Below are positions 2,544 through 60,872 of a stretch of 61,688 nt of DNA, in pieces; the stretch's first letter is position 1; every line of letters starts with the position of its first letter. The stretch is from Candidatus Yanofskybacteria bacterium (GTDB lineage: Bacteria; Patescibacteriota; Minisyncoccia; 2-02-FULL-40-12; IGHO2-12-FULL-4): positions 1-61,688 of the forward strand of contig JACPNK010000003.1 of NCBI GenBank assembly GCA_016185525.1, read 5' to 3'. The position numbers were made by a program, and so were the translations under genes. The notes beneath the pieces are model-generated. The model was not told where the DNA came from. It saw nothing but the letters and a program-made list of their open reading frames with translations, and did not search any database.

Positions 2544-3629
2544 ATGGATAACCTAAATAAAAATTTAAATGTAGCCATACTGATTTCAACAAAAGATCGG
2601 CCCGACTTTATGACCCGACAGCTTCTTTATTATTCAAAACTTAAATCACCTCATCCGGTTTATATCGCGGATTCAAGCAATGACAAAAATGCCGAAATCC
2701 TAAAAAATGCCGTCAACAAATTAAAAAATGAAATATCGATTAAATATACATGGTATCCGCCCGGACCCGATAATCATGGAAGCTTGTTGGAACAGGTAAA
2801 AGAAAAATATGCTTGTGTAATCAGTGATGACGATTATCAGATACCGGCCTCTCTGGTAAAATGCGCGGAATTTTTGGAAAATAATCCGGATTACGCCGCA
2901 GCGGGCGGACGCTCGGTAAGTTTCCGCCTAAAAGAAAGCGGGCCGTACGGAGAGTTACAAAGATTGGCCGACTATCCGAGATATTCGATTGAGGCGGAAA
3001 CGGCCCGTCAGAGATTGATTGATTTCATGAAAGTTATTTATTCCATATCATTCTTCGTAAATCGGGTAGATGGCATGAAAAAAGCTTGGAAAAGCAAGCT
3101 GTATATGGCCCAGACGATGAATGAACTCATTTCTTGGAATCACTTGATTATAGCCGGAAAATCAAAATTGATTGACTGTTTAAGTCTTGTCCGGCAAATT
3201 CATGCCCAACAATACTCAATGCCTAACATTTTTGATTGGGTAACCGGTAAAAACTTCTCTGATGATTATGAGTTCTTCAAGGATGATATCGCCAAAGCAG
3301 TAGCCGAAAAAGATAATATTGACGTCCAAGACGCCAAAGAAACCGCTAAAGAAATTTTTTGGCACTATGCGCAAAAAACACTGTCTTCGGATTATAAATA
3401 TTACATTGCCAAGCAATATCCTCCTAAAAAAATGTCGAACAAAAACCTAAGGGCTGAAATTGCGAAATCATTTCCGGTTCTTAAGAAAATATACAGGTCT
3501 TATGTAAGGCGGCTTCTGAGTAACGACCCGCAAATGCATTATGAAGTACTCCAGCCAAGTTCAAAATATTACAGAGACTTTAAGCCTGTTATGGATTCGT
3601 TCACCGGTTCTTCTCCAAAAAATCTTTAA
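2544..3629 (+). CDS. GT-A-like (GT2-like) putative glycosyltransferase, paralog 1 of 3
   Basis: N-terminus VAILISTKDRPDF...PVYIADSSND and an acidic DDD motif, as in GT-A folds. Clearly homologous to the two downstream minus-strand genes. Its 3' end overlaps the convergent paralog by 29 nt. Confidence 0.6.
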   Translation: MDNLNKNLNVAILISTKDRPDFMTRQLLYYSKLKSPHPVYIADSSNDKNAEILKNAVNKLKNEISIKYTWYPPGPDNHGSLLEQVKEKYACVISDDDYQIPASLVKCAEFLENNPDYAAAGGRSVSFRLKESGPYGELQRLADYPRYSIEAETARQRLIDFMKVIYSISFFVNRVDGMKKAWKSKLYMAQTMNELISWNHLIIAGKSKLIDCLSLVRQIHAQQYSMPNIFDWVTGKNFSDDYEFFKDDIAKAVAEKDNIDVQDAKETAKEIFWHYAQKTLSSDYKYYIAKQYPPKKMSNKNLRAEIAKSFPVLKKIYRSYVRRLLSNDPQMHYEVLQPSSKYYRDFKPVMDSFTGSSPKNL

Positions 3630-4656
3630 CAATTTTAAAATCATTAAAGTATTTTGATTCCGGCCGGTCAACGTAACTGGGAGGGTAAAATTTATAGTAG
3701 ATACTCTTTAAAAGCGGTTTGCTGGAAATAAAGTATCTTAGTTTTTTAAACAGATTCCGCCTGGCAGGCGCGGATTCTCCCTGGCCAACGGATAACCAGC
3801 CGGTTTCTAAAGTAAACTGGCGCGCAAGATAGAGAATAAATATCCATTTAACAATTTTTAAGCTTTCTTTTTCCGGCACGCCCTTTTCTTGTATAATTTC
3901 CGAGAATCCTTTTTCGCAAATGCTCCACTGTTCGCCAACGGATGGCGATAGCATAAAATCGACATAAAGAAAACTGGGATTGTGGTCAAGAGAGTATCTA
4001 AGGCCGCTTATTTGCATAACATACCCCAGCTTATCAAGCATCTTAGATTTTCCGGAAATTATAAGTATAGACGCCAATAAAAATTCCGTCATACGCCCGG
4101 CCAAAGAGAAATGCCTGGTAATATTGCGTATTGACCTTTCTGTCTCAACCCTTGTAACCGCAAAACTGATAAAAACCGGGTTGAACCAAAAACTTTTTAT
4201 TCGCGCAAGCATATCCTCATTTTCAATCGATCTGCTGGATGTGGATGTTTGCTGCTCAATTAAACCATAGGGCTTACTATAGTCTTCCTGCCGGAAACGG
4301 ATATTTACTTGCCTGCCGGCGCAAGTTCCGTAATCAGGATGTTCCTCCAAAAAGTCGGCGCATTCAGAGATTGTTTTTGGAATCATTATGTCGTCATCGC
4401 CCATTTGTATGCAGTATTTTTCTTTTACTAACGGCAATATCTGATACAGAGAATCTTTTCCCGGCGGAGCCCATTGGTAAGTAATTTCAAATTTTTTGAA
4501 CTTTTTAATTCCCTCTTTTAATTTTTCAGCGTTTTTTTCGTTACTGCTGTCTAATATGTATATCGGGTGTGGGCTGTTCATCAATTCATAAAACTCAAAT
4601 TGCCTTAAAAGAAAGTCAGGACGGTTCATTGTCGGAATTGTTATAGCAACCTTCAT
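3601..4656 (-). CDS. GT-A-like putative glycosyltransferase, paralog 2 of 3
   Basis: MKVAITIPTMNRPDF...IYILDSSNE and a GDDD motif. ATGA overlap with the upstream paralog at 4653-4656. GGAG lies 9 nt upstream of the ATG. Confidence 0.6.
   Translation of the reverse strand: MKVAITIPTMNRPDFLLRQFEFYELMNSPHPIYILDSSNEKNAEKLKEGIKKFKKFEITYQWAPPGKDSLYQILPLVKEKYCIQMGDDDIMIPKTISECADFLEEHPDYGTCAGRQVNIRFRQEDYSKPYGLIEQQTSTSSRSIENEDMLARIKSFWFNPVFISFAVTRVETERSIRNITRHFSLAGRMTEFLLASILIISGKSKMLDKLGYVMQISGLRYSLDHNPSFLYVDFMLSPSVGEQWSICEKGFSEIIQEKGVPEKESLKIVKWIFILYLARQFTLETGWLSVGQGESAPARRNLFKKLRYFISSKPLLKSIYYKFYPPSYVDRPESKYFNDFKIVKDFLEKNR
3613..3808. repeat. 196-nt near-identical segment shared by tandem paralogs (copy A)
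   Basis: Matches 4665..4860 with only 2 mismatches seen by eye. Covers the C-terminal ~60 codons of paralog 2. Confidence 0.85.
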
Positions 4657-5693
4657 AAGTAGGACTCCAAAAAATCTTTAACAATTTTAAAATCATTAAA
4701 GTATTTTGATTCCGGCCGGTCAACGTAACTGGGAGGGTAAAATTTATAGTAGATACTCTTTAAAAGCGGTTTGCTCGAAATAAAGTATCTTAGTTTTTTA
4801 AACAGATTCCGCCTGGCAGGCGCGGATTCTTCCTGGCCAACGGATAACCAGCCGGTTTCTGTAGAAAATCTATAAGGATAGACAAGATAAATAAGAAATA
4901 TCCATTTAATAATTTTTAAGCTTTCTTTTTCCGGCACACCCTTTTCCTGTATAATTTCCGAGAATCCTTTTTCGCAAATGCTCCATTTCTCGCTAATAAA
5001 ACTAAAATTAGCCGTAAGGCTGTGGTCAAAGGATCGAATGCCGCTTATTTGCATAACATACCCCAGTTTATCAAGCACCTTAGATTTTCCGGAAATTATC
5101 AATATGGACAATAGCAAAAATTCCAACATGTCCTCCAGAAGACCAAAATGTTTTGTAATGTTTCTTATTGTTTTTTCTGTTTCAGTCCTTCTGACTGCAA
5201 AGCAGATAAAAGTCGGGTCGGACCAGAAATTTTTTGCCCGCACAAGCATATTCCCATCTTCAACTGACCTGCCTAGCGGAAGCGTTTGCTGCTCAATCAA
5301 ACCGTAGGGTTTACTATAATCTTCCTGTCGGAAACGGATATCTACTTGTTTACCGGCGCAAGTTCCGTAATCAGGATGTTCTTCTAAAAAGTCGGCGCAT
5401 TCAGAGATTGTCTTTGGAATAACAATGTCATCGTCTCCTATCTGAACACAGTATTTTTCTTTTATTAAAGGCGTTAATTGATACAAACAATCTTTTCCCG
5501 GCGGAGCCCATTGATAAGTAGTCTCAAAGTTTTTGAACTTTTTAATTCCTTCTTTTAACTTTTCGGCGTTTTCTTCGTTACTGCTATCCAAGATATATAT
5601 GGAATGAGGACTACTCATAAACTCATAGAACTCAAACTGTCTCAATATAAAATCAGGGCGGTTCATTGTTGGAATTATTATAGCAACTTTCAT
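4653..5693 (-). CDS. GT-A-like putative glycosyltransferase, paralog 3 of 3
   Basis: MKVAIIIPTMNRPDF aligns with the paralog 2 N-terminus, so the ATG at 5693 is preferred. The ORF is open to 5777, but that extension would run into the regulatory motif at 5761-5787. Confidence 0.6.
   Translation of the reverse strand: MKVAIIIPTMNRPDFILRQFEFYEFMSSPHSIYILDSSNEENAEKLKEGIKKFKNFETTYQWAPPGKDCLYQLTPLIKEKYCVQIGDDDIVIPKTISECADFLEEHPDYGTCAGKQVDIRFRQEDYSKPYGLIEQQTLPLGRSVEDGNMLVRAKNFWSDPTFICFAVRRTETEKTIRNITKHFGLLEDMLEFLLLSILIISGKSKVLDKLGYVMQISGIRSFDHSLTANFSFISEKWSICEKGFSEIIQEKGVPEKESLKIIKWIFLIYLVYPYRFSTETGWLSVGQEESAPARRNLFKKLRYFISSKPLLKSIYYKFYPPSYVDRPESKYFNDFKIVKDFLESYL
4665..4860. repeat. 196-nt near-identical segment shared by tandem paralogs (copy B)
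   Basis: Counterpart of 3613..3808. The identity ends 5 codons before each stop codon. Confidence 0.85.
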
Positions 5694-5760
5694 ATAGGAT
5701 TCGTGGAAATTATTTGTTAAATAATATAATTTAGATGAAACAAAGTCCATAGCCGACTTA

Positions 5761-5787
5761 TTGACACCTTTTGACATCTTTTGATAC
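5761..5787 (+). promoter_or_regulatory. Phased triple TTGAY motif, copy 2 (TTGACACCTTTTGACATCTTTTGATAC)
   Basis: Hexamers at 5761, 5771 and 5781. Only 9 nt separate the motif from the GTG start at 5797. Located in a divergent intergenic region. Confidence 0.6.
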
Positions 5788-19805: not shown

Positions 19806-19914
19806 AAGTCAATTTTTACTTTTTAATTTAAAATTTTTACTTAATTTGCAATAACTAATTTTAAAAAAATTAAAAATTCATTAAAAATTGAAAAGTGAAA
19901 ATTAAAAATTTTTT

Positions 19915-36310: not shown

Positions 36311-37369
36311 TTACCGAGAGTCATTGATTGTTGCGTAAATTTTACTGATAAGTTTGTCTAAGTCGTGATTTTCTAAAACATAGTCTCTAAATTCTCTTCT
36401 ACAGCCCGCGCCGCACAAATTTTTTATCTTGCCAGCAAGTTCTTCAGGGTCGTCTTCTTTAAAAACTGATTCGTCTTTCAAAAACTTTCGGGAAGAATCA
36501 TTGGAACTCAATACATTGCACCCGCAGGCCATTGCTTCAAGAATGGTCTTGTCCAAGCTTCCCGTTTTGCTTAAGTGCACAAAAATATCGTGAGACTGAT
36601 AGTATTTTGGCAACTCTTTGTGATTTATTTTTCCAATAAAACTAAAATTTTCCTCCAACTTCAAACTTTTAATTCTAAACTTTAAACTTGCCAAATAGCG
36701 GACATCGCTATCCAGCGCTGTTTCTCCGACCATAGTTACGGAAAAATTTACCCCGCCGTCTTTCAATATTTTAGCCGCATTGATCAGCGTCTCGTAATTT
36801 TTAACCGGCGAAACCCTTCCCACGCTCAATATCTTAATTCCACCGAGGTCGAACCTCGGTGTCCTTCTATCGAGGTTCGACCTCGAAAAATCTGGCTTAA
36901 ATAATTCTGTATCAATTCCGTGCCCCGTAACTATCACCTTTTTTGACGGCAAGCGAAAACTTTCTTTTGAAGCGGTAAAAATAGTATCGGCAAATTTTTC
37001 AGCCAACTTTAACTTGGCTGTCACTCCGCCGCTGGTATACCAAAAAAATATCTTCTTGCCTGTTAAGCGCCACCACCAGCCGCCCAAAACAACCCATATC
37101 GGGTTCATGTGGACAAAAACGGCATCATAATTATTTCTCAAGTTGAAAATTGAAAATTGAAAATTTAAAAATTGCCTTAGTTTTCCGGCGCCCTTGTCTT
37201 TGCCCAAACTTATAGCCCTTACGTTATCGGGTAACGCAAGGGAGCCTTCTTCCAGACACAAGACCGTAACTTTTTCAAACTTCTTCGAAAACAATCTTAT
37301 CCATTCAATAAAAAACCCGAGCAACTGGTCGTTTTCGTCAACTTTTTGTGTAATAATTAATAATTTCAA
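36311..37369 (-). CDS. Glycosyltransferase family 4
   Basis: ILEAMACGCNVLSS EX7E region. N-terminus MKLLIITQKVDENDQLLGFF. TTG start. Carries two in-frame repeat insertions (36842..36886 and 37144..37164). Confidence 0.8.
   Translation of the reverse strand: MKLLIITQKVDENDQLLGFFIEWIRLFSKKFEKVTVLCLEEGSLALPDNVRAISLGKDKGAGKLRQFLNFQFSIFNLRNNYDAVFVHMNPIWVVLGGWWWRLTGKKIFFWYTSGGVTAKLKLAEKFADTIFTASKESFRLPSKKVIVTGHGIDTELFKPDFSRSNLDRRTPRFDLGGIKILSVGRVSPVKNYETLINAAKILKDGGVNFSVTMVGETALDSDVRYLASLKFRIKSLKLEENFSFIGKINHKELPKYYQSHDIFVHLSKTGSLDKTILEAMACGCNVLSSNDSSRKFLKDESVFKEDDPEELAGKIKNLCGAGCRREFRDYVLENHDLDKLISKIYATINDSR
36842..36886. repeat. Twin palindromic hairpins inside the GT4 CDS
   Basis: ACCGAGGT-CGA-ACCTCGGT (36842-36860) and TCGAGGT-TCG-ACCTCGA (36870-36886). 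They encode NLDRRTPRFDLGG in the interdomain linker. Confidence 0.85.
37144..37164. repeat. (TGAAAAT)x3 heptanucleotide tract inside the GT4 CDS
   Basis: Three perfect units plus a degenerate fourth. Encodes NFQFSIFN on the minus strand. Confidence 0.9.
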
Positions 37370-46690: not shown

Positions 46691-48340
46691 TCAATTGGGA
46701 ATTAGCACCCTTAAGGCTTGGCGGGTTATCTCGCCGAAGAAACCGGAGGTTGGTTTAACTCCGTATTTTTCTTGAAGTCGTTTAACCGCATCACGAGTGA
46801 TATTGCCGAAATAGCCGGTCAGTAAATTGGCTGGATAACTAACTTGGTCCACCAGCAATGCTTGTAATCTTTTGACATCATCGCCTCTAAGACCAAGGTA
46901 TAGGTCTCTGGAAAAATCAAAACTAACAGGGGTAGAATTACAAATACCATTACCGCATCCAAAAGGACAAATATAAACACTTCGATATACTTTGCCGTCG
47001 TTGCCGCAATAGTACTCAAAAATGTAATCGGTCTGAGAACTATCAAGACAAGCATCATAATGAATAGAATTTGCTCCTAAACTAGGATCTGACCGATCAC
47101 TGGATATATTTGAGTTCTCTCCCACTATGATGCTTGGCGAACCATTAGCGGGCGGTCCCTTCGCGACCCCCCTTATAAAATAATCCAAACCCCCATCTGT
47201 ATCAGTGCAAGCTGATGCTGTTGGAGTTGGGATAGGAGTGGGAGTGGGTGTTGGAGTTGGAGTAGAACTAGAACTAATATAGGTTACAATATTAGATTCC
47301 GTTCCATTAGAATAAGAACATCCGTAAAAGTCAGCGTTACCACATCCATAAACTTTATAACGGTAAGTGAAGCCGGACTCGAGATTGAGTTTGTTGTCAT
47401 CATAACCAAAACCATCGACTTGGGACCAGATTTGATAGGCATTACCATTGACACTCCGATAAAGATGGTATTTTAGAGGGGTTCCTGACCAAGTAACCAT
47501 AATTTTATCAGCGACCAGAGAAGCAGTTACCGAGGTTGGCGGGAGTGGACTTGAAGTTGAAGTTGGTGTGGAAGAATATGTCGGTGTGGGGGCGGGTGTC
47601 GGTGTCGGTGTCGGTGTAGAACTTGCCGGTTGAATAGGAATTGCCGACACTGCCGGAATAGCCGGTTGAATAGAAGAAGTTGGTGTCGGAGTCGGAGAAA
47701 GCGATGTTGAAGCTGGACCGGGAGAAACAGTTGGAGAGACTAAGGGCAGAGAGTGTGAGGCTGGAACCGCCGGAATAGCGGGTATAGCCGGCATGACAGG
47801 AGTAGCCGGGGTAGCAGGAGTAATTGGCGCAACTCTATGGTATTGCGGCACTTCTTTGACCGACTTTAATTCTTGGCCTCTTTTGTACCACTTGAATTCC
47901 TTGTCGTTGATACAGAATACCTTTTTAAAGAAGCTGGGGTCGTCTTGGACAGCTTGGTCTCCGGAAGTGTTGACCCAGCGGAGTTCTCCGCTGTCTTCGT
48001 TGTCTGATTGAAAGCCGTAGACTTTAGGGTCGTTCTTTTCACAGTTGCGAAAGAGGCCGACGACAGGGAAGGCGTCTCGGACTTCGGGGGTTACTAATTT
48101 AATGTTGGCAAAACCTCCTAGGTGGGTGTAGAACTTAAATATTTCGGGATTTAAGAATAATCTCTTGTAGCCATGCTCGTTGATGATATAGACATCAGGG
48201 TCATCGGAGAAGATGGCGGAGATGAGGTCGCCTTCTTTAAGACCGTAGTCGGAGGGCTTGGAAGCGTAAGAGAACTTAGATAAACCCAAAATTAAAACTG
48301 CCAAAAATACAAAAATTAATAGTATAGAATATTTTTTCAC
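46691..48340 (-). CDS. Secreted wall-associated protein: conserved N-terminal domain, Pro/Thr linkers, C-terminal PG_binding_1 domain
   Basis: Signal anchor, the shared domain (DYGLKEGDLISAIFSDDPDVYIINEHGYKRLFLNPEIFKFY...), long PT/PA tracts and a C-terminal LRGDDVKRLQALL...YFGNITRDAVKRLQ peptidoglycan-binding motif. GTG start. Confidence 0.75.
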   Translation of the reverse strand: MKKYSILLIFVFLAVLILGLSKFSYASKPSDYGLKEGDLISAIFSDDPDVYIINEHGYKRLFLNPEIFKFYTHLGGFANIKLVTPEVRDAFPVVGLFRNCEKNDPKVYGFQSDNEDSGELRWVNTSGDQAVQDDPSFFKKVFCINDKEFKWYKRGQELKSVKEVPQYHRVAPITPATPATPVMPAIPAIPAVPASHSLPLVSPTVSPGPASTSLSPTPTPTSSIQPAIPAVSAIPIQPASSTPTPTPTPAPTPTYSSTPTSTSSPLPPTSVTASLVADKIMVTWSGTPLKYHLYRSVNGNAYQIWSQVDGFGYDDNKLNLESGFTYRYKVYGCGNADFYGCSYSNGTESNIVTYISSSSTPTPTPTPTPIPTPTASACTDTDGGLDYFIRGVAKGPPANGSPSIIVGENSNISSDRSDPSLGANSIHYDACLDSSQTDYIFEYYCGNDGKVYRSVYICPFGCGNGICNSTPVSFDFSRDLYLGLRGDDVKRLQALLVDQVSYPANLLTGYFGNITRDAVKRLQEKYGVKPTSGFFGEITRQALRVLIPN

Positions 48341-50254
48341 TAGTTGGAGATTAGCGCCCTTAACGCTCTGCGGGTTATCTCACCGAAGAAACCGGAAATT
48401 GGTTTAACTGCGTATTTCTCCTGGAGTTTTTTGACCGCTTCACGGGTGATATTGCCGAAATAGCCGGTAAGAAGATTGGCTGGATAACTGACTTCGTTTA
48501 CCAAGAGAGCTTGGAGACGGACGACGTCGTTACCCCGAGAACCGAGGTAAAGATCTCTGGAAAAGTTGTCAAAACTTACACTGGAAGTAGTGGGAGTGGG
48601 GGTTGGTGTTGGCTCAACAAGATAGAAAGTGTAATCACTTGAGTAAAACACTTCTCCGGATTGGGTTGTAGCCTTGGCCCTGACATGATAAGTGGTATTA
48701 AAATTTAAATACTGACCCAAATAAGTTTCACCAATATAATAACCGCCATCGGCTGGGTAATTCCCTTTTGCTGCTTCGGATGACCCCCAATTATTCCAAC
48801 CGGAGGTACCGCCATAACTCGTTGTAGTGCCGTACTCGTAAATCACTATTACCTGCTTATTTGAGTGATAGGCCACCCAAACTCGTTTTTGACTAGGCTG
48901 TAAGTCAATAGATAAGGTTATAGTTCCAACGACTGTCGGAGTTGGTGTCGGGGTCGGCGTTGGGGTGGGAGTAGCAGAACCCGCCGCAGTCACATTAAGA
49001 GAAAGCACAATGCTGTTGTAAGGCCATGAACCGCGCTCTTGCGCCCCGGTTGAAGTCACTCTGACAATCGTGTTGTTGTAAGTTTTAATTTGTTGTTGTA
49101 AGTTTTAATTTGACTGTTTGCTGTTGTTGGCGAACAGGTTACTGTAACTGTCTGGGGACTGGCTGGATTAATTAAAACTGAACTTGGCGAAACGGTGCAA
49201 AAAGAAAGAGGCGTGCTTATATCAAGCACTTCAACTTTAAGCAAATCATTGCCAGCCCAGTTGCCCGAAACAGCATTGCCATCATAAGTAGTGCTTATGC
49301 GCATGCTTGTTGAGGCATTGGAATTTTGAGGAATCGTCAAAGAAGAAGGCGTAACCGAGAGAAAATAACCGCCATAATATGCATATGTTGATGTTGATGT
49401 TGATGTGGGTGTCGGTGTTGGGGTCGGGTCGTCGGAGTGGGGGTCGGCGAAAAAGATAGAGATGAGGTTGGCGATGGTGTAACCGTAAATGACGGCGATG
49501 AAGTCGGTGACGGGGAAATAGTTACTAATGGAGTAGCGGTAGGAATCATCGGCGTCGGAGTCGGAGCAAAACATGACCCAACCGTATCTCCATGATCCAA
49601 ATGGGCTTTTAAGGCCGAGGCGTTGACACTGATAGTCTGAAACGCGCCAGCACTATTGGAAGGATGATGACAGATAACCGCTTGGCCGATATCTTTAAAC
49701 TCTGCTTTGGATTCCAGCTTTTTTTCAGTTGAAACTCTTTTCAGTTCTTTTATCCTTTCATATTTGGGTACTTCTTTGACGGTATTCAAGGCCGTTTGGC
49801 TTTTAGGATACCAGTTGAACTCTTTGCGGTTGATACAAAAAACTTTCTTGAAAAAATTGGGGTCGTCTTGGACAGCCTGGTCGCCTGAAGTATTGATCCA
49901 CTTCAGTTGGCCGGAATCTTCGCCTTCTACATCAACTCCGTATACTTTTTCGTCATTATCTTCGCAATTCCGGAAAAGACCCGAAGTGGGAAAGGAATCT
50001 ACCACTTCTTGAGTAACCAATTTAACACTGAAAAACCCTCCCAAATGAGTGTAGAACTTGAATATCTCAGGGTTGAGGAATAATCTCTTGTAGCCTTGTT
50101 CGTTGATGATATAGACATCGGGGTCATCGGAGAAGATGGCGGAGATGAGGTCGCCTTCTTTAAGACCATAGTCGGAGGGGGAGGTAGCTGAAACTGTGGA
50201 AAAATTAAAAAAGATTACCAAAAAAAGCCCAAGGAAAAACCAAGATTTATTCAT
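48340..50254 (-). pseudogene. Disrupted paralog of the wall-associated protein gene (three ORF fragments)
   Basis: ORFs 49337..50254, 49056..49574 and 48340..49059 form one gene. Deleting one copy of the 20-bp duplication (49071-49110) rejoins IKTYNN to TIVRVTSTGAQERGSW. A 1-nt shift near 49426-49428 rejoins the PT linker. Confidence 0.65.
49071..49110. repeat. Perfect 20-bp tandem duplication (TGTTGTTGTAAGTTTTAATT x2)
   Basis: 49071-49090 equals 49091-49110 exactly. The length is not a multiple of 3, so the duplication shifts the frame. Confidence 0.95.
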
Positions 50255-50320
50255 ATGCTTTTATTCTACTCTCTCTACAGACGAAAAAAAATGAGTTATC
50301 AACAAACAAGGTTAGGTTTT

Positions 50321-51919
50321 TTATTTGAAATCATACACAAAGAATGACTGCCCGATTTTGTCAACCGGCTCATACAACGCCAGCCAATTAAGGGCCGGGT
50401 CTTTTTTTTGCTCGCTCAATAACTGCATGCGAATCAGCAAAAAAGTGTTAACGGCAAACCGGCCTTTCGGTTCCCGCCACCAGCCGGATTCGTCGGCTTG
50501 CTTAAAGTTGCTCATACTCACCCGATAATATTCCGGACTTGAATGGCTCCATGAGTAAATAACTTTAGTTTCCGGGTTTTTTGCCTGATACTTGCCAAGC
50601 CGTTTTAAGTCCTGGCCCCATTCAATATTCGAGTCATCAAGATATTTGTAGCCGTTCTTGGAACCGCCGATAAATTCGTTGAAATAAGGCATGTAGTCGG
50701 GGTAGATGCTGAAAGCGGAATAAGCATACCAAACAGCCAAAACCAAAATTAAGATTGTTTTAAAATTAACAATTGAAAATTTATTGAAAATTGAAAATTG
50801 AAAATTGAAAATTTTTGATAAATAGCCGCCGGCGTAAAGAATTAAAAATGGAATTGCCGGAATAAGATATCTAATGCTTATATTTTGAGCCTTTGCGCTT
50901 GTCACAAAAGCGAAGAAAAGCATTGGTAAAAATACAAGCGCCTTGCTCCAACTGTCCATTTTTATTTTTTTGTAAAGTAAAATAGAAGCCGCAAACGCAA
51001 CTAATGCCGGAATAGGCGTTTTTATCAGAAACGCTTCCAAAAAGTAATACCACCAGCCGTCCGGCGAAAATTTGCCGTTCAAATAAAGATTAAAATCCGG
51101 CTTCCAGTTGGCGTAAACGCTTTTGAAACCTCTTAAATAAAACCCGGAGTCGGCCGGCATAAGATAGGAAAAATATATGACGGCAACAGCGGGAATAGCC
51201 ATGATCAGAGAAAGGTTTGCCAACCGGCGCATCTTCACATTAAGCTCACCGCCGCGTTGCCATGCATAAGTCAAAATAAATAAGGCAACCACGGGTAAAA
51301 AGATAGTGGCGGAGAATTTTGAACTTAAAGCCATGCCAAGAAACAATCCGGAGTAAGCCAAGTGTTTTTTTAGTCCGGCTGTAACAAACTTCCATAAATA
51401 ATAAAAAGTAATGAATGAAAAGGATGCCAGCGGAAGGTCCATCGTAACAAATTGAGCGTTGGTAATAATCACGGGCATAAATGCGTACAGGAACAGAGCC
51501 AAAAGGCCGGCTTTGCGGCTAAACATTTCTGACCCCCATTTGTAGATATAAAAACCAAGCAAAACCGACAAGAGCATCATCGGCAACCGTCCCCAAAGCA
51601 GTAACCGGTCGGCGTCGTTAGAAAATAAAAATTTACTCCCAAAGGTCCACTGTTTTTTAAAAGGACCGGCTAGGTTGACATCATCGGCGTCAAATTTCAA
51701 ATCCATGAAAAGCAGAGGAAACGAGGCCATTAATTTTACCAGCGGAGGATGTTCGGGATTCAATACTATCTCGCCTGTTTTCCAATAAGAATAACCGCCC
51801 GGCAAGTGAATTATTTCGTCGGTTGCCGGACTAAAATTTTGCGCGCTGAAAAACGGAATAAAAAACACTAACAACAACAGAACTGTGAGTATGCTTTTAT
51901 AATGCGAAACCGAAAACAT
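50321..51919 (-). CDS. GT39/PMT-like (ArnT-like) GT-C membrane glycosyltransferase
   Basis: First-loop TDEIIHLPGGYSY and NPEHPPLVKL motifs typical of PMT_2-type enzymes. About 12 TM helices. Carries the (TGAAAAT)n insertion. Confidence 0.75.
   Translation of the reverse strand: MFSVSHYKSILTVLLLLVFFIPFFSAQNFSPATDEIIHLPGGYSYWKTGEIVLNPEHPPLVKLMASFPLLFMDLKFDADDVNLAGPFKKQWTFGSKFLFSNDADRLLLWGRLPMMLLSVLLGFYIYKWGSEMFSRKAGLLALFLYAFMPVIITNAQFVTMDLPLASFSFITFYYLWKFVTAGLKKHLAYSGLFLGMALSSKFSATIFLPVVALFILTYAWQRGGELNVKMRRLANLSLIMAIPAVAVIYFSYLMPADSGFYLRGFKSVYANWKPDFNLYLNGKFSPDGWWYYFLEAFLIKTPIPALVAFAASILLYKKIKMDSWSKALVFLPMLFFAFVTSAKAQNISIRYLIPAIPFLILYAGGYLSKIFNFQFSIFNKFSIVNFKTILILVLAVWYAYSAFSIYPDYMPYFNEFIGGSKNGYKYLDDSNIEWGQDLKRLGKYQAKNPETKVIYSWSHSSPEYYRVSMSNFKQADESGWWREPKGRFAVNTFLLIRMQLLSEQKKDPALNWLALYEPVDKIGQSFFVYDFK
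50774..50812. repeat. (TGAAAAT) heptanucleotide tract, 1 + 4 copies, inside the GT39 CDS
   Basis: One unit at 50774-50780 and four perfect tandem units at 50785-50812. Encodes NFQFSIFNKFSIVNF. Confidence 0.9.
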
Positions 51920-51989
51920 GCTGATATCTTATATCAAACATAAAAGACCCGCAAATGGGTCTTTTGTGTTTGAATTTTTAAATTTTAAG

Positions 51990-53216
51990 TTATTTAACCA
52001 GCTGTAGATAATCACCATGCACCCAAGCATCTTTGCTCTGGTATTTAATCTTATGCCACAAACCTGACTGACTTAAACTTTCTATAATGCTCCCTGCCGG
52101 CAACTTGCCCAAAAGCGCGCTTGAAGTGGCGGCTAATGCCCTCACATTAAGCTGGTCTGTGTCAAAAACTTTATACTTCTTCAATGCGGAGACCGGAGCA
52201 GGAGTTGAAGATACGACATTTTTTCTTGAGTAATCCGGTATTTGATTTACGGAAGTGTAGTCAGAACCTTTCGGATACCAGTTAAATTCATTGGTGTTGA
52301 TACAGAAGACTTTTTTGAAGAAATTGGGATCGTCAGCAACAGCTTGCTCACCGGAGGTATTTACCCAGTGAAGTTTGCCGGTATCTTCGCCTGTCGTTTC
52401 CACGCCGTAGACTTTTTTGTCATTGGTCTCGCAGTTTCTGAAAAGACCGGAAGTTACAAAGACATCTCTGGTTACAGATGTGGTGCCCTTCACTTTAGAA
52501 AATCCTCCAAGATGACCGTAAAATCCGAATATGGCGGGGTTTAAAAATAATCTTTTATAACCGTGTGGATTAACTATGTAAACATCGGGGTCGCTTGAAC
52601 CGGCAGCACTAATAACGTCACCGTCTTTCAAACTTACATTGGCTAAGCTGACAAACCCTCGCGAGGCCGGTGTTGCTTGTCCCGAGCTTGTCGAGGGGGC
52701 CGGGGTTGGAGTTGCTTGCGGTGAGCTTGTCGAAACCGGTGTGGGAGTTGGTGTTTTCGCAGGCGTGGTTGTCCCACCGCCACCACTGCTAGGAGGACTA
52801 GTGGTGGTAGTGGTGGCAGAAGAACCAGCAATGGAACCGGTGCTTTCGCAAGAAGTTGACCTGGGAGTAACTATGATAGTTTTGGTAGCGTCAGCGTTAA
52901 TAGTAAGCCGTGACGCAGTAGCTCCACAAACAAAGCCGTAACCGCTGTCGTTGTCCAGATATAATTTACTTGCCGATGAAAGAACTATTTTTTGGCCGGA
53001 AATAACGCTTATAGTAATTGTGGTATTCGTAGTTGTTACCTCGTTTACTATGGAATTGGCTTCTATGGTAATATCACCGACACCCAAGTTTACAGTGGTG
53101 TCTTCAGAAAAAGTAACGGTTGTCGCTTTTGCTTCGTTGATTCCGACCAATAACAGTCCCGCCGCTAAAATGGTAACGAGTAAGGAGAGAAAGAAATTAG
53201 TCTTTAATAATTTCAT
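51990..53216 (-). CDS. Secreted protein: N-terminal beta-rich region, PT linker, shared surface domain, C-terminal SH3b domain
   Basis: Signal peptide, TPAKTPTPTPVSTSSPQATPTPAPS linker, the shared domain (DGDVISAAGSSDPDVYIVNPHGYKRLFLNPAIFGFY) and a C-terminal LNVRALAATSS...GLWHKIKY...AWVHGDYL SH3_3-like motif. Confidence 0.7.
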   Translation of the reverse strand: MKLLKTNFFLSLLVTILAAGLLLVGINEAKATTVTFSEDTTVNLGVGDITIEANSIVNEVTTTNTTITISVISGQKIVLSSASKLYLDNDSGYGFVCGATASRLTINADATKTIIVTPRSTSCESTGSIAGSSATTTTTSPPSSGGGGTTTPAKTPTPTPVSTSSPQATPTPAPSTSSGQATPASRGFVSLANVSLKDGDVISAAGSSDPDVYIVNPHGYKRLFLNPAIFGFYGHLGGFSKVKGTTSVTRDVFVTSGLFRNCETNDKKVYGVETTGEDTGKLHWVNTSGEQAVADDPNFFKKVFCINTNEFNWYPKGSDYTSVNQIPDYSRKNVVSSTPAPVSALKKYKVFDTDQLNVRALAATSSALLGKLPAGSIIESLSQSGLWHKIKYQSKDAWVHGDYLQLVK

Positions 53217-56572: not shown

Positions 56573-58405
56573 TTATTCGACGGTTAACTGTTGAATAAGC
56601 TGTTGTATCAACCTTCCTGTCTCAAGATCAACACTGGAATATTTCAACCCTTCTTTTAAATCGGCAATCGCTTTTTCTTTGTTATTTAAAGCGAGGTAAA
56701 CAAGCGCGGAGTTGTAATAGACACGAGGATTGCCAGGAAGAAGCATTTTTAATTTTTCCATATTCGCCGCCGCTTGAACTAAATCGCCCTGTTGGGCGTA
56801 GATAACCGCCAAATCTTGATATGGATAGAAAAAGCTAGGGTCAATTTCTATGGCCTTGTTAAACTCGGCAATCGCGCCCTTAATATCGCCTCGCGACCGT
56901 AGTATGCTTCCGATGTTAAAATGTGGCTGGGCAAAAATATCACCGGCTTCAACCGCTTTTCTGTAATAAACTTCGGCTTGTTCTTTATCGCCCTGGTTGA
57001 AATACTGATTGCCCAGATTGTTATTTATTCTGGCATTGTCCGGTTCATATTCTAAAATATTTTTGTAAAACTCAACCGGTTTGCCCCAAACAATATTGCG
57101 CTGAATGGATTGGTAGGCAAAAAAGGAGAAATAGGCAATGAGACCAATGACAAATGACAAATGACAAATGACAAATTTTTTACTTCTAAAATACTCAAAA
57201 AGTTTGACCAGATAGAAAGAAACTATCAGCCAGAAACCGACCATCGGCAGATAAAGCCAGTGTTCGTACATTAAAGCGTTAATCGGCGTAATTCCGGAGA
57301 CTGGAGCAAGGGCAACGAAGAACCAAAGCGCTCCCAAAAGCCAAATCCTGACATCGGATGCCGGAACGACATCCGATGTCCTTAAATTCTTATAAAACCT
57401 GTATGCCAAACGCCAAACGCCAAACGCCAACAACAATGCTATCAGCCACACCGGCCATTGAAATAACGAAGTGTATATCTTAACGCTTCGCTCCATGTGA
57501 AGCCCGACGGGAGCAACAAGGAGTTTTAAGTATTCCCAAAGTATCGGCAGAAAGGTAAAGATCCTAACATGCAAATTTTCAGAATAAACATTTTGCTGGG
57601 AATAAAAATTAAGCGTGTTCTGAAAATTTAAAACCGTGAGCCGTAAAATACCGTAAACGATAACCACCGCAAAATACGGCCATGTTTTTAAAAGTCCTTG
57701 TTTTAATGATTTTATTAAGGTCCGACCAACTGTTGGACGTTGAACGTCCCACAGTTGGATATAGAAAAAAACGAGAGCCAGAAATGGGAAAACTATAGCC
57801 GTTTCACGGCTTAAAAGGCTTAAAACCAAAGAGCCTATAATTAGTAGACGGTAACCAAAAGACGACGTTTTGACATCGGATGTCCGCTGGACATCCGATG
57901 TCGTTAATTCTGACTTGCAGAAAAACAATAAACCTAAGAGCATAAACATCGCCGCCAAAGCATCCCCCCTTCCGGAAATGTATGTTATCGCTTCGGTTTG
58001 CAGAGGGTGGATTAAGAAAAACAAAGCAGTCAAAAAAGCAAACGGGTCTTTTTTGAAAGCCCGCCTTATAAGCCAAAAAACGAGAACAGAGTTAAATATA
58101 TGTATCGCATTGCTGGTCAAGTGGTAAAGCAACGGTTTCACTCCGGATATAATATAGTTGAGAGTAAATGTAAAAAACAGGAACGGCCGGTAGTAGTTGC
58201 TCTTCAGCCCTATCCCCGCCAGAACGTCGTGAGTAAACCAAAATTTGACATTATCCCAGCTCACCGAATGAACAAAACTATTATTGATTATCCAGTCGTC
58301 GTCGTCCCAAAATAACCCGTTGTTTATGTTGAACGAGTACACAAAACCGCCGGCAATAATCAGAGCAATCACCGCAAGTCCTGTTTTATTTTTCAGTAAA
58401 TTCAT
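56573..58405 (-). CDS. TMTC-like GT-C membrane glycosyltransferase with C-terminal TPR repeats (paralog)
   Basis: LFWDDDDWIINN, YYRPFLFFTFTLNY, HIFNSVLVFWLI and HPLQTEAITYISGRGDALA, followed by a TPR block. Contains four in-frame repeat elements. Confidence 0.7.
   Translation of the reverse strand: MNLLKNKTGLAVIALIIAGGFVYSFNINNGLFWDDDDWIINNSFVHSVSWDNVKFWFTHDVLAGIGLKSNYYRPFLFFTFTLNYIISGVKPLLYHLTSNAIHIFNSVLVFWLIRRAFKKDPFAFLTALFFLIHPLQTEAITYISGRGDALAAMFMLLGLLFFCKSELTTSDVQRTSDVKTSSFGYRLLIIGSLVLSLLSRETAIVFPFLALVFFYIQLWDVQRPTVGRTLIKSLKQGLLKTWPYFAVVIVYGILRLTVLNFQNTLNFYSQQNVYSENLHVRIFTFLPILWEYLKLLVAPVGLHMERSVKIYTSLFQWPVWLIALLLAFGVWRLAYRFYKNLRTSDVVPASDVRIWLLGALWFFVALAPVSGITPINALMYEHWLYLPMVGFWLIVSFYLVKLFEYFRSKKFVICHLSFVIGLIAYFSFFAYQSIQRNIVWGKPVEFYKNILEYEPDNARINNNLGNQYFNQGDKEQAEVYYRKAVEAGDIFAQPHFNIGSILRSRGDIKGAIAEFNKAIEIDPSFFYPYQDLAVIYAQQGDLVQAAANMEKLKMLLPGNPRVYYNSALVYLALNNKEKAIADLKEGLKYSSVDLETGRLIQQLIQQLTVE
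57146..57176. repeat. (AATGACA)x4 heptanucleotide tract in CDS
   Basis: Four perfect units at 57146-57173 plus a partial unit. Encodes FVICHLSFVIG within a TM segment. Confidence 0.9.
57350..57380. repeat. GACATC-palindrome element, variant copy
   Basis: GACATCGGATG-CCGGAAC-GACATCCGATGTC. Encodes RTSDVVPASDV in frame. Confidence 0.85.
57405..57431. repeat. (GCCAAAC)x3 heptanucleotide tract in CDS
   Basis: Three perfect units at 57405-57425 plus GCCAAC. Encodes part of LLLAFGVWRLAY. Confidence 0.9.
57871..57909. repeat. GACATC-palindrome element, copy 1 (39-nt identity with copy 2)
   Basis: TGACATCGGATGTCC-GCT-GGACATCCGATGTCGTTAATT, a 14-bp stem with a 3-nt loop (57872-57902). Each arm is itself a GACATC-N-GATGTC palindrome. 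Encodes TTSDVQRTSDV. Confidence 0.9.
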
Positions 58406-60089
58406 ATTTGTATTTGGAAAAAATTGGTTTGTTTTTTGGAATATTTTTAACTAAAATAATAGCACTATTATTGATAAATACCACCTTCCAATCAGAATCC
58501 CGAACTATATTTTTTAAGAACGCCTGCCCCCACGGCGTAGCGTCGGTGTGTCCGAAAAAGACAAAGTTAATGCCGTATTTTTCTGAAAGCTCTTTCCATT
58601 TCTCTTTACTTTCCTGCATCGGTTTATAAATTTCGCTGAAAAACTTAACCGAGTAGGCTTCCGGTCTATTATCCACGAAAACCCTAAAGGGGTCAGGTAC
58701 CTTTTCGGCAGGGTACCTGACCCCTTCAATCTGCCATATCAAATAACCGCCGATGTCAAAATTATTGAACATCGGCCCCTCAATTTTATTTTCCTTAACA
58801 AAGTTAACGGCTTTTTCCAGTTCGCCGGGAACTGAAAAACCAAAAGCCTTGGCAGACCTTATCGCTTTGTAATACCCGCCGCCGGAAACCCAAAAAATCA
58901 TAAAAATGAGAAACCCGGCAACTGCTATCTTGAACACACCGCTTAAATATCTCCTGACATCGGATGTCCGCTGGACATCCGATGTCGTTAATTTAAAAAC
59001 ATCACCCAACAGCATCGTCAAGACCGGAAAAGAAACCAAAGCATATAGAGGCAGATTGCGAAGCATCTTAAAACCGGCATAAATTGAAAAGGCTAAAATT
59101 AAAATTTCAAAAATTCTTTGTCTCGTTTTTCTAAAAGTTGTGACCAGCAAAATTGCCGCCACTGCCACGGAAAGTTTGAAAACAAAAATTGTCAGTTTAA
59201 AGCCGAAGAAATTTGACAGAAAAGCGAGCGTCTGATTTTCAACAATGCTATAGCCGTACTCTTTTAAAATTGTAAAGGGAGCTAAAGCGCCTTGAAGACC
59301 GTTGGGGTTGGCTAGAGTAGCAACAAAAACTAGAGATAAGATAAGGACAACTTTTTTAAGCGATAAATCTACAAACGGGAGAATATGTCTCTTTCTTGCG
59401 CCGGACTCTTCGCCGTCGAACTGCGAAAGAGACATATTCTCCCGTTTGTTTTTACGATTTATCGCTTGATCAATTAAAAAACTCAACACCAAAAACGGTC
59501 CGATGAAAAAATAAATATGTAAATTTACCCAAAATAGCTCGGCTAAGGGCAAAAACCACAACAGATTTGAGGTTCGATCTCCGTATTTCTCATTCGAGGA
59601 GGTCCGACCTCCGTATTTCTCTCTGAACAAAACAAACAAAAAGAAAGCTAAAATGGCAAAACTGAAAATTTCGGGTCTGACTTCGGTGCGCTCAATAAAT
59701 ATAAAAATTGAAAGCAAAAAAGAAATTGCGATCGGCCAAAAGGTGGCATATTTTTTGACGGTAAAAAAAAGCAGTAAAAAAGCGGCCAAAACAAAAAAGA
59801 CTTTAAGCAAAATTAAGCCGGTAAAACCAAACCAGCCGTAAATTCCGTAAAATATGACCTCGCTTAACCAATGATGGTTTGCGAACGGAAAATCCGGTTC
59901 GGTAAAAGAAAAAAAATTTACCCTCGGCACTTCCTTTGTCTGCCAGATAACTTCCCCCAACTTTAAGTGCCGCCCGATGTCCTGCCCGATGGAGTCAAAG
60001 CTGTGAATCAGAAAAACAGCCAGAAGGCTAAATAATAATACAAAAACACAAAGCTCTAATTTATTCCTGTTTAGATTTGAGAAACCCAC
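58386..60089 (-). CDS. Polytopic membrane protein, unclassified (possible GT-C-like)
   Basis: At least 12 hydrophobic helices and a soluble C-terminal domain. GTG start. Overlaps the downstream paralog gene by 20 nt. Carries three in-frame repeat insertions. Confidence 0.6.
   Translation of the reverse strand: MGFSNLNRNKLELCVFVLLFSLLAVFLIHSFDSIGQDIGRHLKLGEVIWQTKEVPRVNFFSFTEPDFPFANHHWLSEVIFYGIYGWFGFTGLILLKVFFVLAAFLLLFFTVKKYATFWPIAISFLLSIFIFIERTEVRPEIFSFAILAFFLFVLFREKYGGRTSSNEKYGDRTSNLLWFLPLAELFWVNLHIYFFIGPFLVLSFLIDQAINRKNKRENMSLSQFDGEESGARKRHILPFVDLSLKKVVLILSLVFVATLANPNGLQGALAPFTILKEYGYSIVENQTLAFLSNFFGFKLTIFVFKLSVAVAAILLVTTFRKTRQRIFEILILAFSIYAGFKMLRNLPLYALVSFPVLTMLLGDVFKLTTSDVQRTSDVRRYLSGVFKIAVAGFLIFMIFWVSGGGYYKAIRSAKAFGFSVPGELEKAVNFVKENKIEGPMFNNFDIGGYLIWQIEGVRYPAEKVPDPFRVFVDNRPEAYSVKFFSEIYKPMQESKEKWKELSEKYGINFVFFGHTDATPWGQAFLKNIVRDSDWKVVFINNSAIILVKNIPKNKPIFSKYKYEFTEK
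58955..58993. repeat. GACATC-palindrome element, copy 2
   Basis: The 39-mer is identical to 57871-57909. It encodes KLTTSDVQRTSDVRR in a different protein. Confidence 0.9.
59358..59467. repeat. 110-bp imperfect inverted-repeat element inside a CDS (MITE/RPE-like)
   Basis: Perfect 23-bp arms at 59373-59395 / 59425-59447. Outer 12-bp arms AAGCGATAAATC (59358-59369) / GATTTATCGCTT (59456-59467). 29-nt loop. Read through in frame. Confidence 0.85.
59569..59628. repeat. 30-nt tandem direct repeat with GAGGTyCGAyCTC palindromic cores
   Basis: GAGGTTCGATCTCCGTATTTCTC (from 59569) and GAGGTCCGACCTCCGTATTTCTC (from 59599). Encodes EKYGGRTSSN / EKYGDRTSNL. Confidence 0.85.
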
Positions 60090-60106
60090 TCAGCAAGAAA
60101 TGGCTA

Positions 60107-60174
60107 CATTGTTATATTGTTACATTGTTAGCAATATAGTCATTCAACAGTGTAACAATTTAGCAATGTAACAA
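60107..60174. repeat. Intergenic octamer repeats (CATTGTTA-TATTGTTA-CATTGTTA) with downstream inverted copies
   Basis: Three 8-mers at 60107-60130. TTGTTACATTG (60117-60127) pairs with CAATGTAACAA (60164-60174). The nested ATTGTTA/TAACAAT pair gives alternative stems. Confidence 0.8.
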
Positions 60175-60179
60175 CTTAC

Positions 60180-60848
60180 CTACGGCAAGACTATTGTTGT
60201 TTTGCCTGAACATTGCTTTTCAAAAACTTTGACATCGCCCCCGACTGCCACAAAATTGCCTTTAGCATCCACCAATCGGCCGTATTGAATCTTCGCAGTC
60301 AGTTCATACTTCTTGTATTTTGGATTTTCCGGCAGGGCAATGCCCAGCAGACTTTCTCCGTTTGGCAGTTTCAATTTACTAAAAATATTCGGCCCGACTG
60401 ATATGTCGTCCTGGGAAGTTACGGTCCACGAAATATTCCTTGCCGGGTGGTCAACTCCGCTGTAAATTAATTTTGCATCTTGGTTATCATAAGTATTGCG
60501 GTTCAAAAATTTAATCTCGCCCTGCAGTTGGCACGATGCCTGGCCTAAAAGCAAGTTCCAAGGCACCGGTTCGTCAATGAAAGCAGTTTTACCGTCTCCG
60601 GTTGGAAGCGGCACTGCCCCGACACCGACATTGCTTGTCTGTTGAGGCGCGCGCGTTGAACTTGTCCCTGTCGGCTCCGGAGTCGGAGACAGGCTCACCG
60701 TTTCTTGCAGTGAGCCAGTCGAATCTGCTGACGGTTCCGGCGTATTTGTGCTTTCAACATCAGGTGGTTCCTGTTTACTCATTAACATAAGAGAAACCCC
60801 GGCAACTATGGCAGTGACTGACAATATATAGATTGTTTTATTTTTCAT
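60180..60848 (-). CDS. Secreted/anchored hypothetical protein with S/T/P-rich linker
   Basis: MKNKTIYILSVTAIVAGVSLMLM anchor, then PEPSADSTGS...SPTPEPTGTSS linker, then a globular C-terminal domain. The ATG at 60848 is preferred over the TTG at 60866. Confidence 0.6.
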   Translation of the reverse strand: MKNKTIYILSVTAIVAGVSLMLMSKQEPPDVESTNTPEPSADSTGSLQETVSLSPTPEPTGTSSTRAPQQTSNVGVGAVPLPTGDGKTAFIDEPVPWNLLLGQASCQLQGEIKFLNRNTYDNQDAKLIYSGVDHPARNISWTVTSQDDISVGPNIFSKLKLPNGESLLGIALPENPKYKKYELTAKIQYGRLVDAKGNFVAVGGDVKVFEKQCSGKTTIVLP

Positions 60849-60872
60849 AATGCTGAATAATATCAAAAATTA

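Follow-up and report, generated by a model that had tools for sequence, protein, structure and literature searches.

An in-frame hairpin in a membrane-protein gene of a Candidatus Yanofskybacteria relative, probably a coding palindrome formed in place

The subject of this analysis is a long inverted repeat at positions 59358-59467 of a 61,688-nt stretch of Candidatus Yanofskybacteria DNA (contig JACPNK010000003.1, assembly GCA_016185525.1), referred to below as the window. The repeat lies inside a gene encoding a polytopic membrane protein and is read through in frame. An earlier note, prepared from the sequence alone, had interpreted the 110 bp as a miniature inverted-repeat transposable element (MITE) resembling the Rickettsia palindromic elements (RPEs). 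Comparison with orthologous loci led us to a different explanation, held with moderate confidence: the hairpin is a coding palindrome that was formed in place and whose arms have been homogenised, and not an inserted element. This explanation does not require the hairpin to have a function; it would be a tolerated by-product of a mutational process.

The hairpin and its native half

The hairpin is enclosed in a continuous minus-strand open reading frame (ORF) of 567 aa and is translated as ...INRKNKRENMSLSQFDGEESGARKRHILPFVDLSLKK... between hydrophobic helices, as the earlier note had described. The outer arms are 12 nt long and perfectly complementary, again in agreement with that note. The inner arms are also perfect, but over 25 nt (59371-59395 and 59425-59449) rather than the 23 bp proposed originally. 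The inner and outer helices are joined unequally, by 1 nt on one side (59370) and by 6 nt on the other (59450-59455). The description of the 29-nt spacer as a GC-richer loop was accurate, its GC content being 66% in comparison to 33-40% in the arms and flanks. The parts of the gene referred to in this work are as follows.

58386..60089, minus strand: host gene, encoding a 567-aa polytopic membrane protein (from the ORF and its homologs)
59425..59467, minus strand: native arm, 5' in the coding sense (outer part 59456-59467, 6-nt junction, inner part 59425-59449), encoding QAINRKNKRENMSL
59396..59424, minus strand: GC-rich 29-nt spacer, GCAGTTCGACGGCGAAGAGTCCGGCGCAA in the coding sense, the most conserved part of the structure
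59358..59395, minus strand: derived arm, 3' in the coding sense (inner part 59371-59395, 1-nt junction, outer part 59358-59369), encoding (R)KRHILPFVDLSL
~59359..59427, minus strand: the extra 69 nt (23 codons) made up of the spacer and the inverted copy, from the DNA alignment with loci L001/L002
58687..58726, minus strand: second coding palindrome with 15-nt perfect arms and a 10-nt spacer, peptide IEGVRYPAEKVPDPFR

The RNA of the coding strand was predicted to fold at -61.8 kcal/mol, in comparison to -26.4 +/- 3.4 kcal/mol for shuffled sequences (z = -10.3; 0 of 200 shuffles as stable), and the DNA at -39.2 kcal/mol (z = -8.9). Shuffling yielded 0.00 arms of 25 nt at up to 3 mismatches. The hairpin is the longest among the perfect local inverted repeats of the 61.7-kb window. 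The earlier remark that a hairpin of this length is unusual within an ORF was correct.

The alignment with orthologs that the earlier note had suggested showed which half of the structure belongs to the host gene. At the protein level the segment is present in P0001-4, 6, 29, P0009 and P0019 and absent from P0005 and all others. P0005, with an empty site, is 81% identical outside the loop and was placed in a neighbour-joining tree as the sister of the window's hairpin clade. The DNA of the empty-site loci L001 and L002 reads ...CAAGCGATAAATCGTAAAAATAAACCAGAGAATGTGTCTCT|CAAAAAAG... (also given as ...CAAGCGATAAATCGTAAAAATAAACCAGAGAATGTGTCTCT|CAAAAAAGTT...) and holds the entire coding-sense 5' arm, including its outer part, with 90% identity over 40 nt and without an inverted partner. 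All orthologs have (A/L)(I/V)N residues at the end of the preceding helix (DRLIN, DQLIN, DKLVN), and it is these residues that are encoded by the outer arm GCGATAAATC. The other arm, at 59358..59395, is an inverted copy of the native one, perfectly complementary to 59425-59449 and 59456-59467, and is missing from the empty-site orthologs.

Since the 5' arm is native in the empty-site orthologs, the extra DNA comprises 69 nt (23 codons) and not ~110 nt (37 aa). The claim of an in-frame insertion varying by presence and absence is thus retained, whereas its extent of ~37 aa is not. The 69 nt gained by the window are bounded by a 5/6 direct repeat, TC(T/G)CTT, because of which the ends of the gain are ambiguous by up to ~5 nt. 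Measured against the commonest loop of 53 residues the gain is 81 nt, which is also shorter than the 110-nt hairpin. A diverged allele that co-occurs in two of the sequencing runs (X2 and X4) has 134 nt in place of the window's 203, i.e. exactly 69 fewer. The loop is 52-53 residues long in most orthologs and 57-101 in many, with unrelated inserts; since insertions are tolerated there, it constitutes an insertion hotspot. As the outer part of the 5' arm is homologous to conserved codons of all orthologs, the palindrome was made in this gene and at this site, and on the evidence of these alignments this should hold whichever direction the change ran.

The gain could have originated in a template switch during replication or repair within the variable inter-helix loop. 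Such an event would have added first the 29-nt spacer and then, in inverted form, the adjacent 40 nt of upstream native coding sequence, with re-entry through the TC(T/G)CTT microhomology. The 5/6 repeat at the junctions of the 69 nt fits the use of microhomology rather than a duplication at the ends of the hairpin. Since 69 is divisible by 3, the gained DNA contains no stop codon and the loop tolerates insertions, it is translated as a 23-residue extension of the loop.

Maintenance, transfer and recurrence

Five distinct alleles were aligned and 37 arm pairs were counted, in which 91% of the cells are paired. Changes on both sides were found in 11 of the 37 pairs; none of 500 shuffles (5.8 +/- 1.5) reached this number and slid controls gave 0-3. 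Among the 25 pairs of the inner helix 13 are invariant and 8 have changed on both sides, and there are no one-sided changes. In this helix 96% of the cells are paired and G-U pairs do not occur. Even an offsetting pair of indels is mirrored: one arm has CG-GGAGAATATG versus CGAGGAGA-TATG, and the opposite arm has the complement. The arms are perfect in 3 of the 5 alleles, and the single mismatches in L004 and L005 look like mutations that may be awaiting homogenisation. The peptides encoded by the arms vary from allele to allele (KRENMSL/KRHILPFV, KQVNRSL/KRPIHLFV, KRGDMSL/KRHISSLT). As the arm-encoded peptide drifts freely, the arms are not constrained by the protein.

Strict Watson-Crick compensation with no G-U pairs, unlike the usual signature of RNA selection, favours homogenisation of the arms at the DNA level by template switching. 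It has been shown previously that template switching homogenises and expands the arms of inverted repeats, also in coding DNA and with several adjacent amino-acid changes (PMC8604942, PMC13100816, PMC7202029), and it has been proposed to maintain the mitochondrial coding palindromes of Nematomorpha (PMC6649704). The pattern seen here would be produced if, as in the template switching of quasipalindromes, one arm repeatedly served as template for the homogenisation of the other. Both arms would then show each change, and perfect Watson-Crick pairing of the stem would persist while its sequence and peptide drift. In E. coli, template-switch mutations are suppressed by the exonucleases ExoI and ExoVII.

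The distribution of the hairpin does not follow the relationships of the genes. With the loop excluded (486 columns), P0019 scored 0.81 against P0057 and 0.79 against P0064, P0054 and P0025, all four of which have the ancestral loop, and only 0.69 and 0.65 against the other carriers P0009 and P0001, respectively. The closest relatives of P0009 are also without the hairpin. Loci L005 and L029 agree at 0.87-1.00 over ~75 codons around the hairpin, in comparison to 0.72 overall. One spacer and hairpin are found in three gene backgrounds that are 65-69% identical outside the loop. Since the spacer is common to them at 26-29 of 29 positions, an independent origin is excluded and the loop segment has been transferred. 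To judge by the polyphyly, the route would most simply be homologous recombination between diverged alleles, by which the hairpin-bearing loop segment would move among diverged co-occurring Yanofskybacteria alleles. Two or three filled allele types are present together with the empty-site allele in the same groundwater samples, so the opportunity for transfer exists.

A reverse-complement copy of adjacent pre-existing sequence was seen at the target, at 58687-58726 in the same gene and, independently, in the comparison of L030 with L031. At 58687-58726 the 3' arm GGTACCTGACCCCTT contains the native TATCCTGAC, whose Y-P-D residues occur in every ortholog. The 30 nt gained there, comprising a spacer and the inverted copy, are located upstream of the native part; the peptide is common to P0007 only. 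At the target's loop in another clade, L030 (P0037) has the arm CGAGGGTCGAGAGTGGGTCGTATGGCTGATTTG alone, and L031 (P0040) has an L030-type arm with 93 nt upstream of it (inverted copy and spacer), the loop segment folding at -93 kcal/mol. In comparison to the target, the inverted copy and spacer of L031 were added on the opposite side of the native arm. L032 and L033 differ according to the same pattern, with an A/T-rich repeat. In the closest relative, L004 (1956-2019), a nested palindromic insert of 63 nt (21 codons, LYVEGSNRPNPKDSLPIIGIDV) lies within the spacer of the target hairpin and forms an apical sub-hairpin, with a total DNA fold of -54.8 kcal/mol. This nested-insert allele is also present in run X5, which comes from a different study.

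Objections and alternative explanations

Several observations weigh against formation in place followed by neutral maintenance, and most of them concern the spacer. It is identical at 26-29 of 29 positions between all carriers, whereas the inner arms agree between clades at only 14-22 of 25 positions (56-88%) and the 3' coding flank at 65-77%. All spacer differences are non-synonymous, and the 9 unchanged codons are identical at their third positions. No homolog of the spacer was found in the empty site, the window, the fetched loci, the GTDB representatives or the JGI metagenomes, the same site aside, and it cannot be derived from neighbouring sequence as a local template would demand. Were a simple fold-back responsible, the loop should consist of native sequence, which the spacer is not. 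Nor is conservation of the spacer predicted for a neutral by-product, except in the case of a young cassette with faster-mutating arms. It is possible that the cassette is younger than the genes and that the arms evolve faster because a change in either of them is copied to both; a constraint at the nucleotide level is the other possibility.

The remaining objections concern direction, sampling and precedent. In the hairpin family of the P0040 type at the same loop, single-arm forms of both polarities occur (P0065, P0037), so P0005 could itself be a derivative of a partial deletion. Taken by itself, the single-arm ortholog is accordingly weaker evidence for which way the change ran. Only about three independent lineages were sampled and the neighbour-joining tree is a simple one. 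Published template-switch events are mostly length-neutral replacements rather than net insertions of 69 nt (PMC7202029, PMC8604942, PMC13100816).

One alternative is a selected nucleic-acid element within the coding sequence, in which the apical loop would act in a sequence-specific manner and the stem would need only to pair, selection keeping the arms complementary. Candidates would be an mRNA hairpin affecting processing, stability or translational pausing, or a hairpin in single-stranded DNA that a protein recognises. We consider this explanation unlikely, though it survives better than the other alternatives. The spacer is 90-100% identical in the carriers with an invariant apical GGCGAAGAG, while the stems differ by 12-44% and yet pair. 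The spacer has acquired no synonymous change, all its changes being non-synonymous, and therefore the constraint, if any, would be on the nucleotides and not on the peptide. In addition, the structure has been kept in three gene backgrounds and its fold is extremely stable. On the other hand, the lack of G-U pairs and one-sided changes in the 25 inner pairs is atypical of selection on RNA structure, and most orthologs, including close ones, are without the hairpin. Other lineages have acquired unrelated hairpins at this loop, and a mutational process accounts for this better than a specific function does.

Searches for a known functional element did not strengthen the case for selection. No Rfam 15 family was matched at its gathering score; there was only noise from models of microRNA (miRNA) precursors, at 25-28 bits versus gathering scores of 80-119, and a sub-threshold match to a frameshift site. 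No slippery heptamer in register was seen by eye upstream of the hairpin. A selenocysteine insertion sequence (SECIS) was excluded because there is no in-frame UGA, and an integron attC site was rejected as the arms do not match the consensus RYYYAAC / GTTRRRY. A terminator was rejected as well, since a terminator/promoter scan detected no T-run after the hairpin on either strand.

It is also conceivable, though improbable, that the spacer, with or without one arm, is a selfish cassette that spreads among orthologous alleles by a homing-like process or gene conversion, the arms being re-templated on the resident sequence. The presence of the same spacer in three backgrounds whose nearest relatives have the ancestral loop would be expected from such a cassette, and so would a near-identical spacer between lineage-specific arms that match the local sequence. 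Several alleles were indeed found together in the same samples. No associated enzyme is known, however, and the 5' arm of P0019 was imported too, its relatives having KDYANIKR at this place, so the arms there were not templated on the resident sequence. Moreover, all carriers have a 69-nt insert, as a single origin predicts, and ordinary homologous recombination among co-occurring relatives would suffice for the spread.

The interpretation of the earlier note, a whole MITE or RPE-like transposable element inserted in frame, is in our judgement very improbable. It could explain an in-frame insertion that varies by presence and absence, and dispersed in-frame hairpins do occur in the same genes. 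The 7-mer GTTCGAC is common to the spacer and the dispersed GAGGTTCGACCTC units, and on the basis of this shared motif it may be speculated that a small dispersed hairpin seeded the structure. The features used to define MITEs and RPEs were taken from PMC10969869. Of the four that were tested, three were wanting (multiple copies, terminal repeats that do not belong to the site, and a target-site duplication) and only the in-frame read-through was found; the read-through peptide sits in a tolerant, hypervariable inter-helix loop.

Further copies, which the earlier note had proposed to look for, were sought in several collections, and only one locus was found wherever the search was made, no closed genome of this organism being available for it. 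Neither the arm nor the spacer recurs in the window. In the four source metagenomes, which contain 97-98% of the window's sampled words, contig depth does not change over the hairpin, and there are no loose ends beside it. The spacer core gave only chance matches, in high-GC Actinobacteria, Myxococcales and others, among 185,579 GTDB species-representative genomes. Searches with blastn-short for the spacer, the nested insert and the arm against the window and all fetched loci returned orthologous sites only, and the four loci detected in a scan of JGI metagenomes were each in the same gene at the orthologous site. The hairpin element had no match in phages and plasmids. Matches of the spacer core in IMG/VR were to two copies of one phage ORF of 55% GC without an inverted repeat and were judged to be due to chance.

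Target-site duplications, also proposed in the earlier note, were not detected at the ends of the 110 bp, where the flanks CTTTTTT / GATCAAT contain no direct repeat. One entire arm is native gene sequence, and fewer nucleotides were gained over the ancestral loop than the hairpin contains. Furthermore, the arms are actively maintained and not decaying, whereas RPEs lose repeat identity over time (PMC6649704). The single locus, the native arm and the missing target-site duplication together refute the 110 bp as a mobile unit. The earlier note had considered its reading untenable if other copies were lacking and orthologs retained an equivalent peptide without an inverted repeat. Other copies are indeed lacking, but the second expectation does not apply literally, as most orthologs are without the peptide.

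Finally, an artefact of assembly or amplification, such as a chimeric inverted join, is hardly credible: amplified DNA is known to give inverted chimeras and the unitigs of run X3 break at 59352-59381, but contigs with zero differences cross the hairpin in three independent runs, those of the fourth (X3) join across it consistently with a 30-nt overlap, diverged alleles with compensated arms are found in unrelated ENA, NCBI and JGI assemblies and studies, and the frame is intact in every assembly carrying the hairpin. The break, at the outer edge of the hairpin and with a 30-nt overlap, was seen in X3 alone and points to a branching assembly graph; several diverged alleles map to 59352-59381 when the stringency is lowered. 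The artefact was thus ruled out by the independent assemblies.

Host protein, neighbouring repeats and known systems

The host protein has 1794 homologs, the closest named ones from Candidatus Yanofskybacteria and other Parcubacteria, and no family was matched in Pfam and NCBIfam. The AlphaFold2 model is of low confidence (predicted local distance difference test, pLDDT, 57) and shows residues 216-241 as unstructured between two long helices. Foldseek gave weak matches to AglB, PglB and AftB, all of them GT-C membrane glycosyltransferases (E >= 0.05, TM ~0.33), and the neighbours at orthologous loci encode PMT/GT22 and TPR membrane proteins. The protein is tentatively regarded as GT-C-fold glycosyltransferase-like. 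The organism is an uncultured groundwater bacterium related to Candidatus Yanofskybacteria. Small 23S_rRNA_IVP (PF05635) genes adjoin orthologs of the host gene in L005/L006 (12060-12344), L032 (104-463 and 2559-2933) and L033 (2654-3022); the window has no such gene at the corresponding place beside the host gene.

The 1.7-kb host gene contains four in-frame hairpins and its neighbour three. A 39-nt GC-rich hairpin, TGACATCGGATGTCCGCTGGACATCCGATGTCGTTAATT, with a 13-15-bp stem and a 3-5-nt loop is present at 58955-58993, 57349-57387 and 57871-57909. It is read in frame in both membrane-protein genes as ...TSDVQRTSDV..., and two of the copies are 100% identical. Its depth in the source metagenomes is 180-409 versus 28-38 for the flanks, and it is surrounded by many different flanking sequences. 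The high depth and varied flanks indicate a truly dispersed repeat, an intragenic family resembling repetitive extragenic palindromes (REPs) and RPEs. Further copies were found in L003, L004, L005 and L026, both within and between genes. The RPE idea of the earlier note does fit the dispersed hairpin at 58955-58993 and applies to it instead of the target in the same gene.

Hairpin units of the GAGGT(Y)CGA(Y)CTC type occur as in-frame pairs at 59569-59621 and also at 36844-36885, with the peptide GGRTSSNEKYGDRTSN; the corresponding sites in orthologs contain the variants GSTLDLQKGRTSN or RSDLESSKRSDL, or nothing. The depth over 59569-59621 is flat (at >=90% likeness), so this copy is not highly repeated. 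The neighbouring gene for a TPR membrane protein (56573-58405) contains at 57726-57758 a 16-nt, 94% complementary hairpin, CCAACTGTTGGACGTT / AACGTCCCACAGTTGG, with a 1-nt spacer and the peptide ...LWDVQRPTVGRTL....

The coding hairpins in membrane-protein genes of Patescibacteria could constitute an undescribed class of two kinds, formed in place and dispersed. In one version of this proposal the target hairpin would be a selected or selfish member with an invariant loop and a co-varying stem, exchanged between alleles and acting as RNA or single-stranded DNA (in processing, pausing or recognition). This version is rather doubtful.

Repeats of other types were noted elsewhere in the window. 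The 90-nt gap between ORFs 58386-60089 and 60180-60866 holds a 32-nt, 81% complementary inverted repeat (60098-60177), which gave sub-threshold miRNA-like matches in Rfam and may be a terminator or a regulatory hairpin. A/T-rich repeats of the TTGAAAATTGAAAATTGAAAATT type (family D9), located at or near gene boundaries (19881-19911, 37143-37173, 50759-50814), may be promoter or regulatory motifs. The adjacent minus-strand ORFs 3601-4656 and 4653-5777 have blocks of 100-300 nt that are 85-93% identical, within 3587-5583 and with a start-to-start distance of ~1040 nt, which looks like a recent tandem gene duplication. At 46691-52763, G-rich GTNGGNGTNGG repeats and repeats of 186-221 nt (70-83% identity) are common to several minus-strand ORFs, suggesting a paralogous family with low-complexity linkers.

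For annotation it follows that a transposable element should not be deduced from a perfect in-frame hairpin alone, and that comparison of filled and empty sites can reveal which half belongs to the host gene. If the palindrome was formed in place, template switching can extend protein loops of streamlined uncultured bacteria by tens of residues in one step, and continued rewriting of the arms could generate loop variation in surface and membrane proteins as well as false signals of RNA covariation. A functional element is still conceivable in view of how conserved the spacer is. In the literature searched, neither in-place coding palindromes nor a dispersed intragenic hairpin family has been described for Patescibacteria.

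Among the known systems, REPs and bacterial interspersed mosaic elements (BIMEs) (PMC3733652) resemble the small neighbouring hairpins (58955-58993 and others) and not the target, being GC-rich, 30-40 nt long and present in many copies. REPs are extragenic, whereas copies of the small hairpin lie in frame inside genes. RPEs (Ogata et al. 2000/2002, as presented in PMC10969869 and PMC6649704) are similar to the target in being palindromic DNA read in frame as an extra peptide in a tolerant region. According to these papers, RPEs form multi-copy families of ~150 bp, with 44 insertions in R. conorii. Each is inserted as a complete unit into genes unrelated to one another, its peptide is conserved within the family, and the identity of the repeats declines with time. 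In contrast to elements so described, the target occupies one locus, is half native and stays perfect.

Quasipalindrome template-switch mutagenesis (the Ripley model; PMC7202029, PMC8604942, PMC13100816) is similar in that one arm templates the other and clustered changes perfect the arms. Published examples include growth of the arms from 5 to 16 bp or from 7 to 25 bp, also in coding DNA. These cases are essentially length-neutral and have short spacers, whereas here 69 nt were added in frame, with a 29-nt spacer and arms of 37 bp in total.

The coding palindromes of Nematomorpha (PMC6649704) are likewise long, perfect and locus-specific inverted repeats within coding sequences, with both arms translated. 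They too are gained and lost between species and actively maintained free of mismatches, and template switching has been proposed for them. There, both arms correspond to conserved regions of the protein, without any insertion. In the present case only one arm is native, and the other lies with the spacer in a new 23-codon insertion; most orthologs have neither the derived arm nor the spacer, and the peptide drifts freely (KRHILPFV, KRPIHLFV, KRHISSLT). The host here is a bacterium (Patescibacteria), and the allele has moved between orthologs. Should the same hold genome-wide, Patescibacteria would provide a bacterial counterpart of the mitochondrial coding palindromes of Nematomorpha, together with an RPE-like family of dispersed intragenic hairpins.

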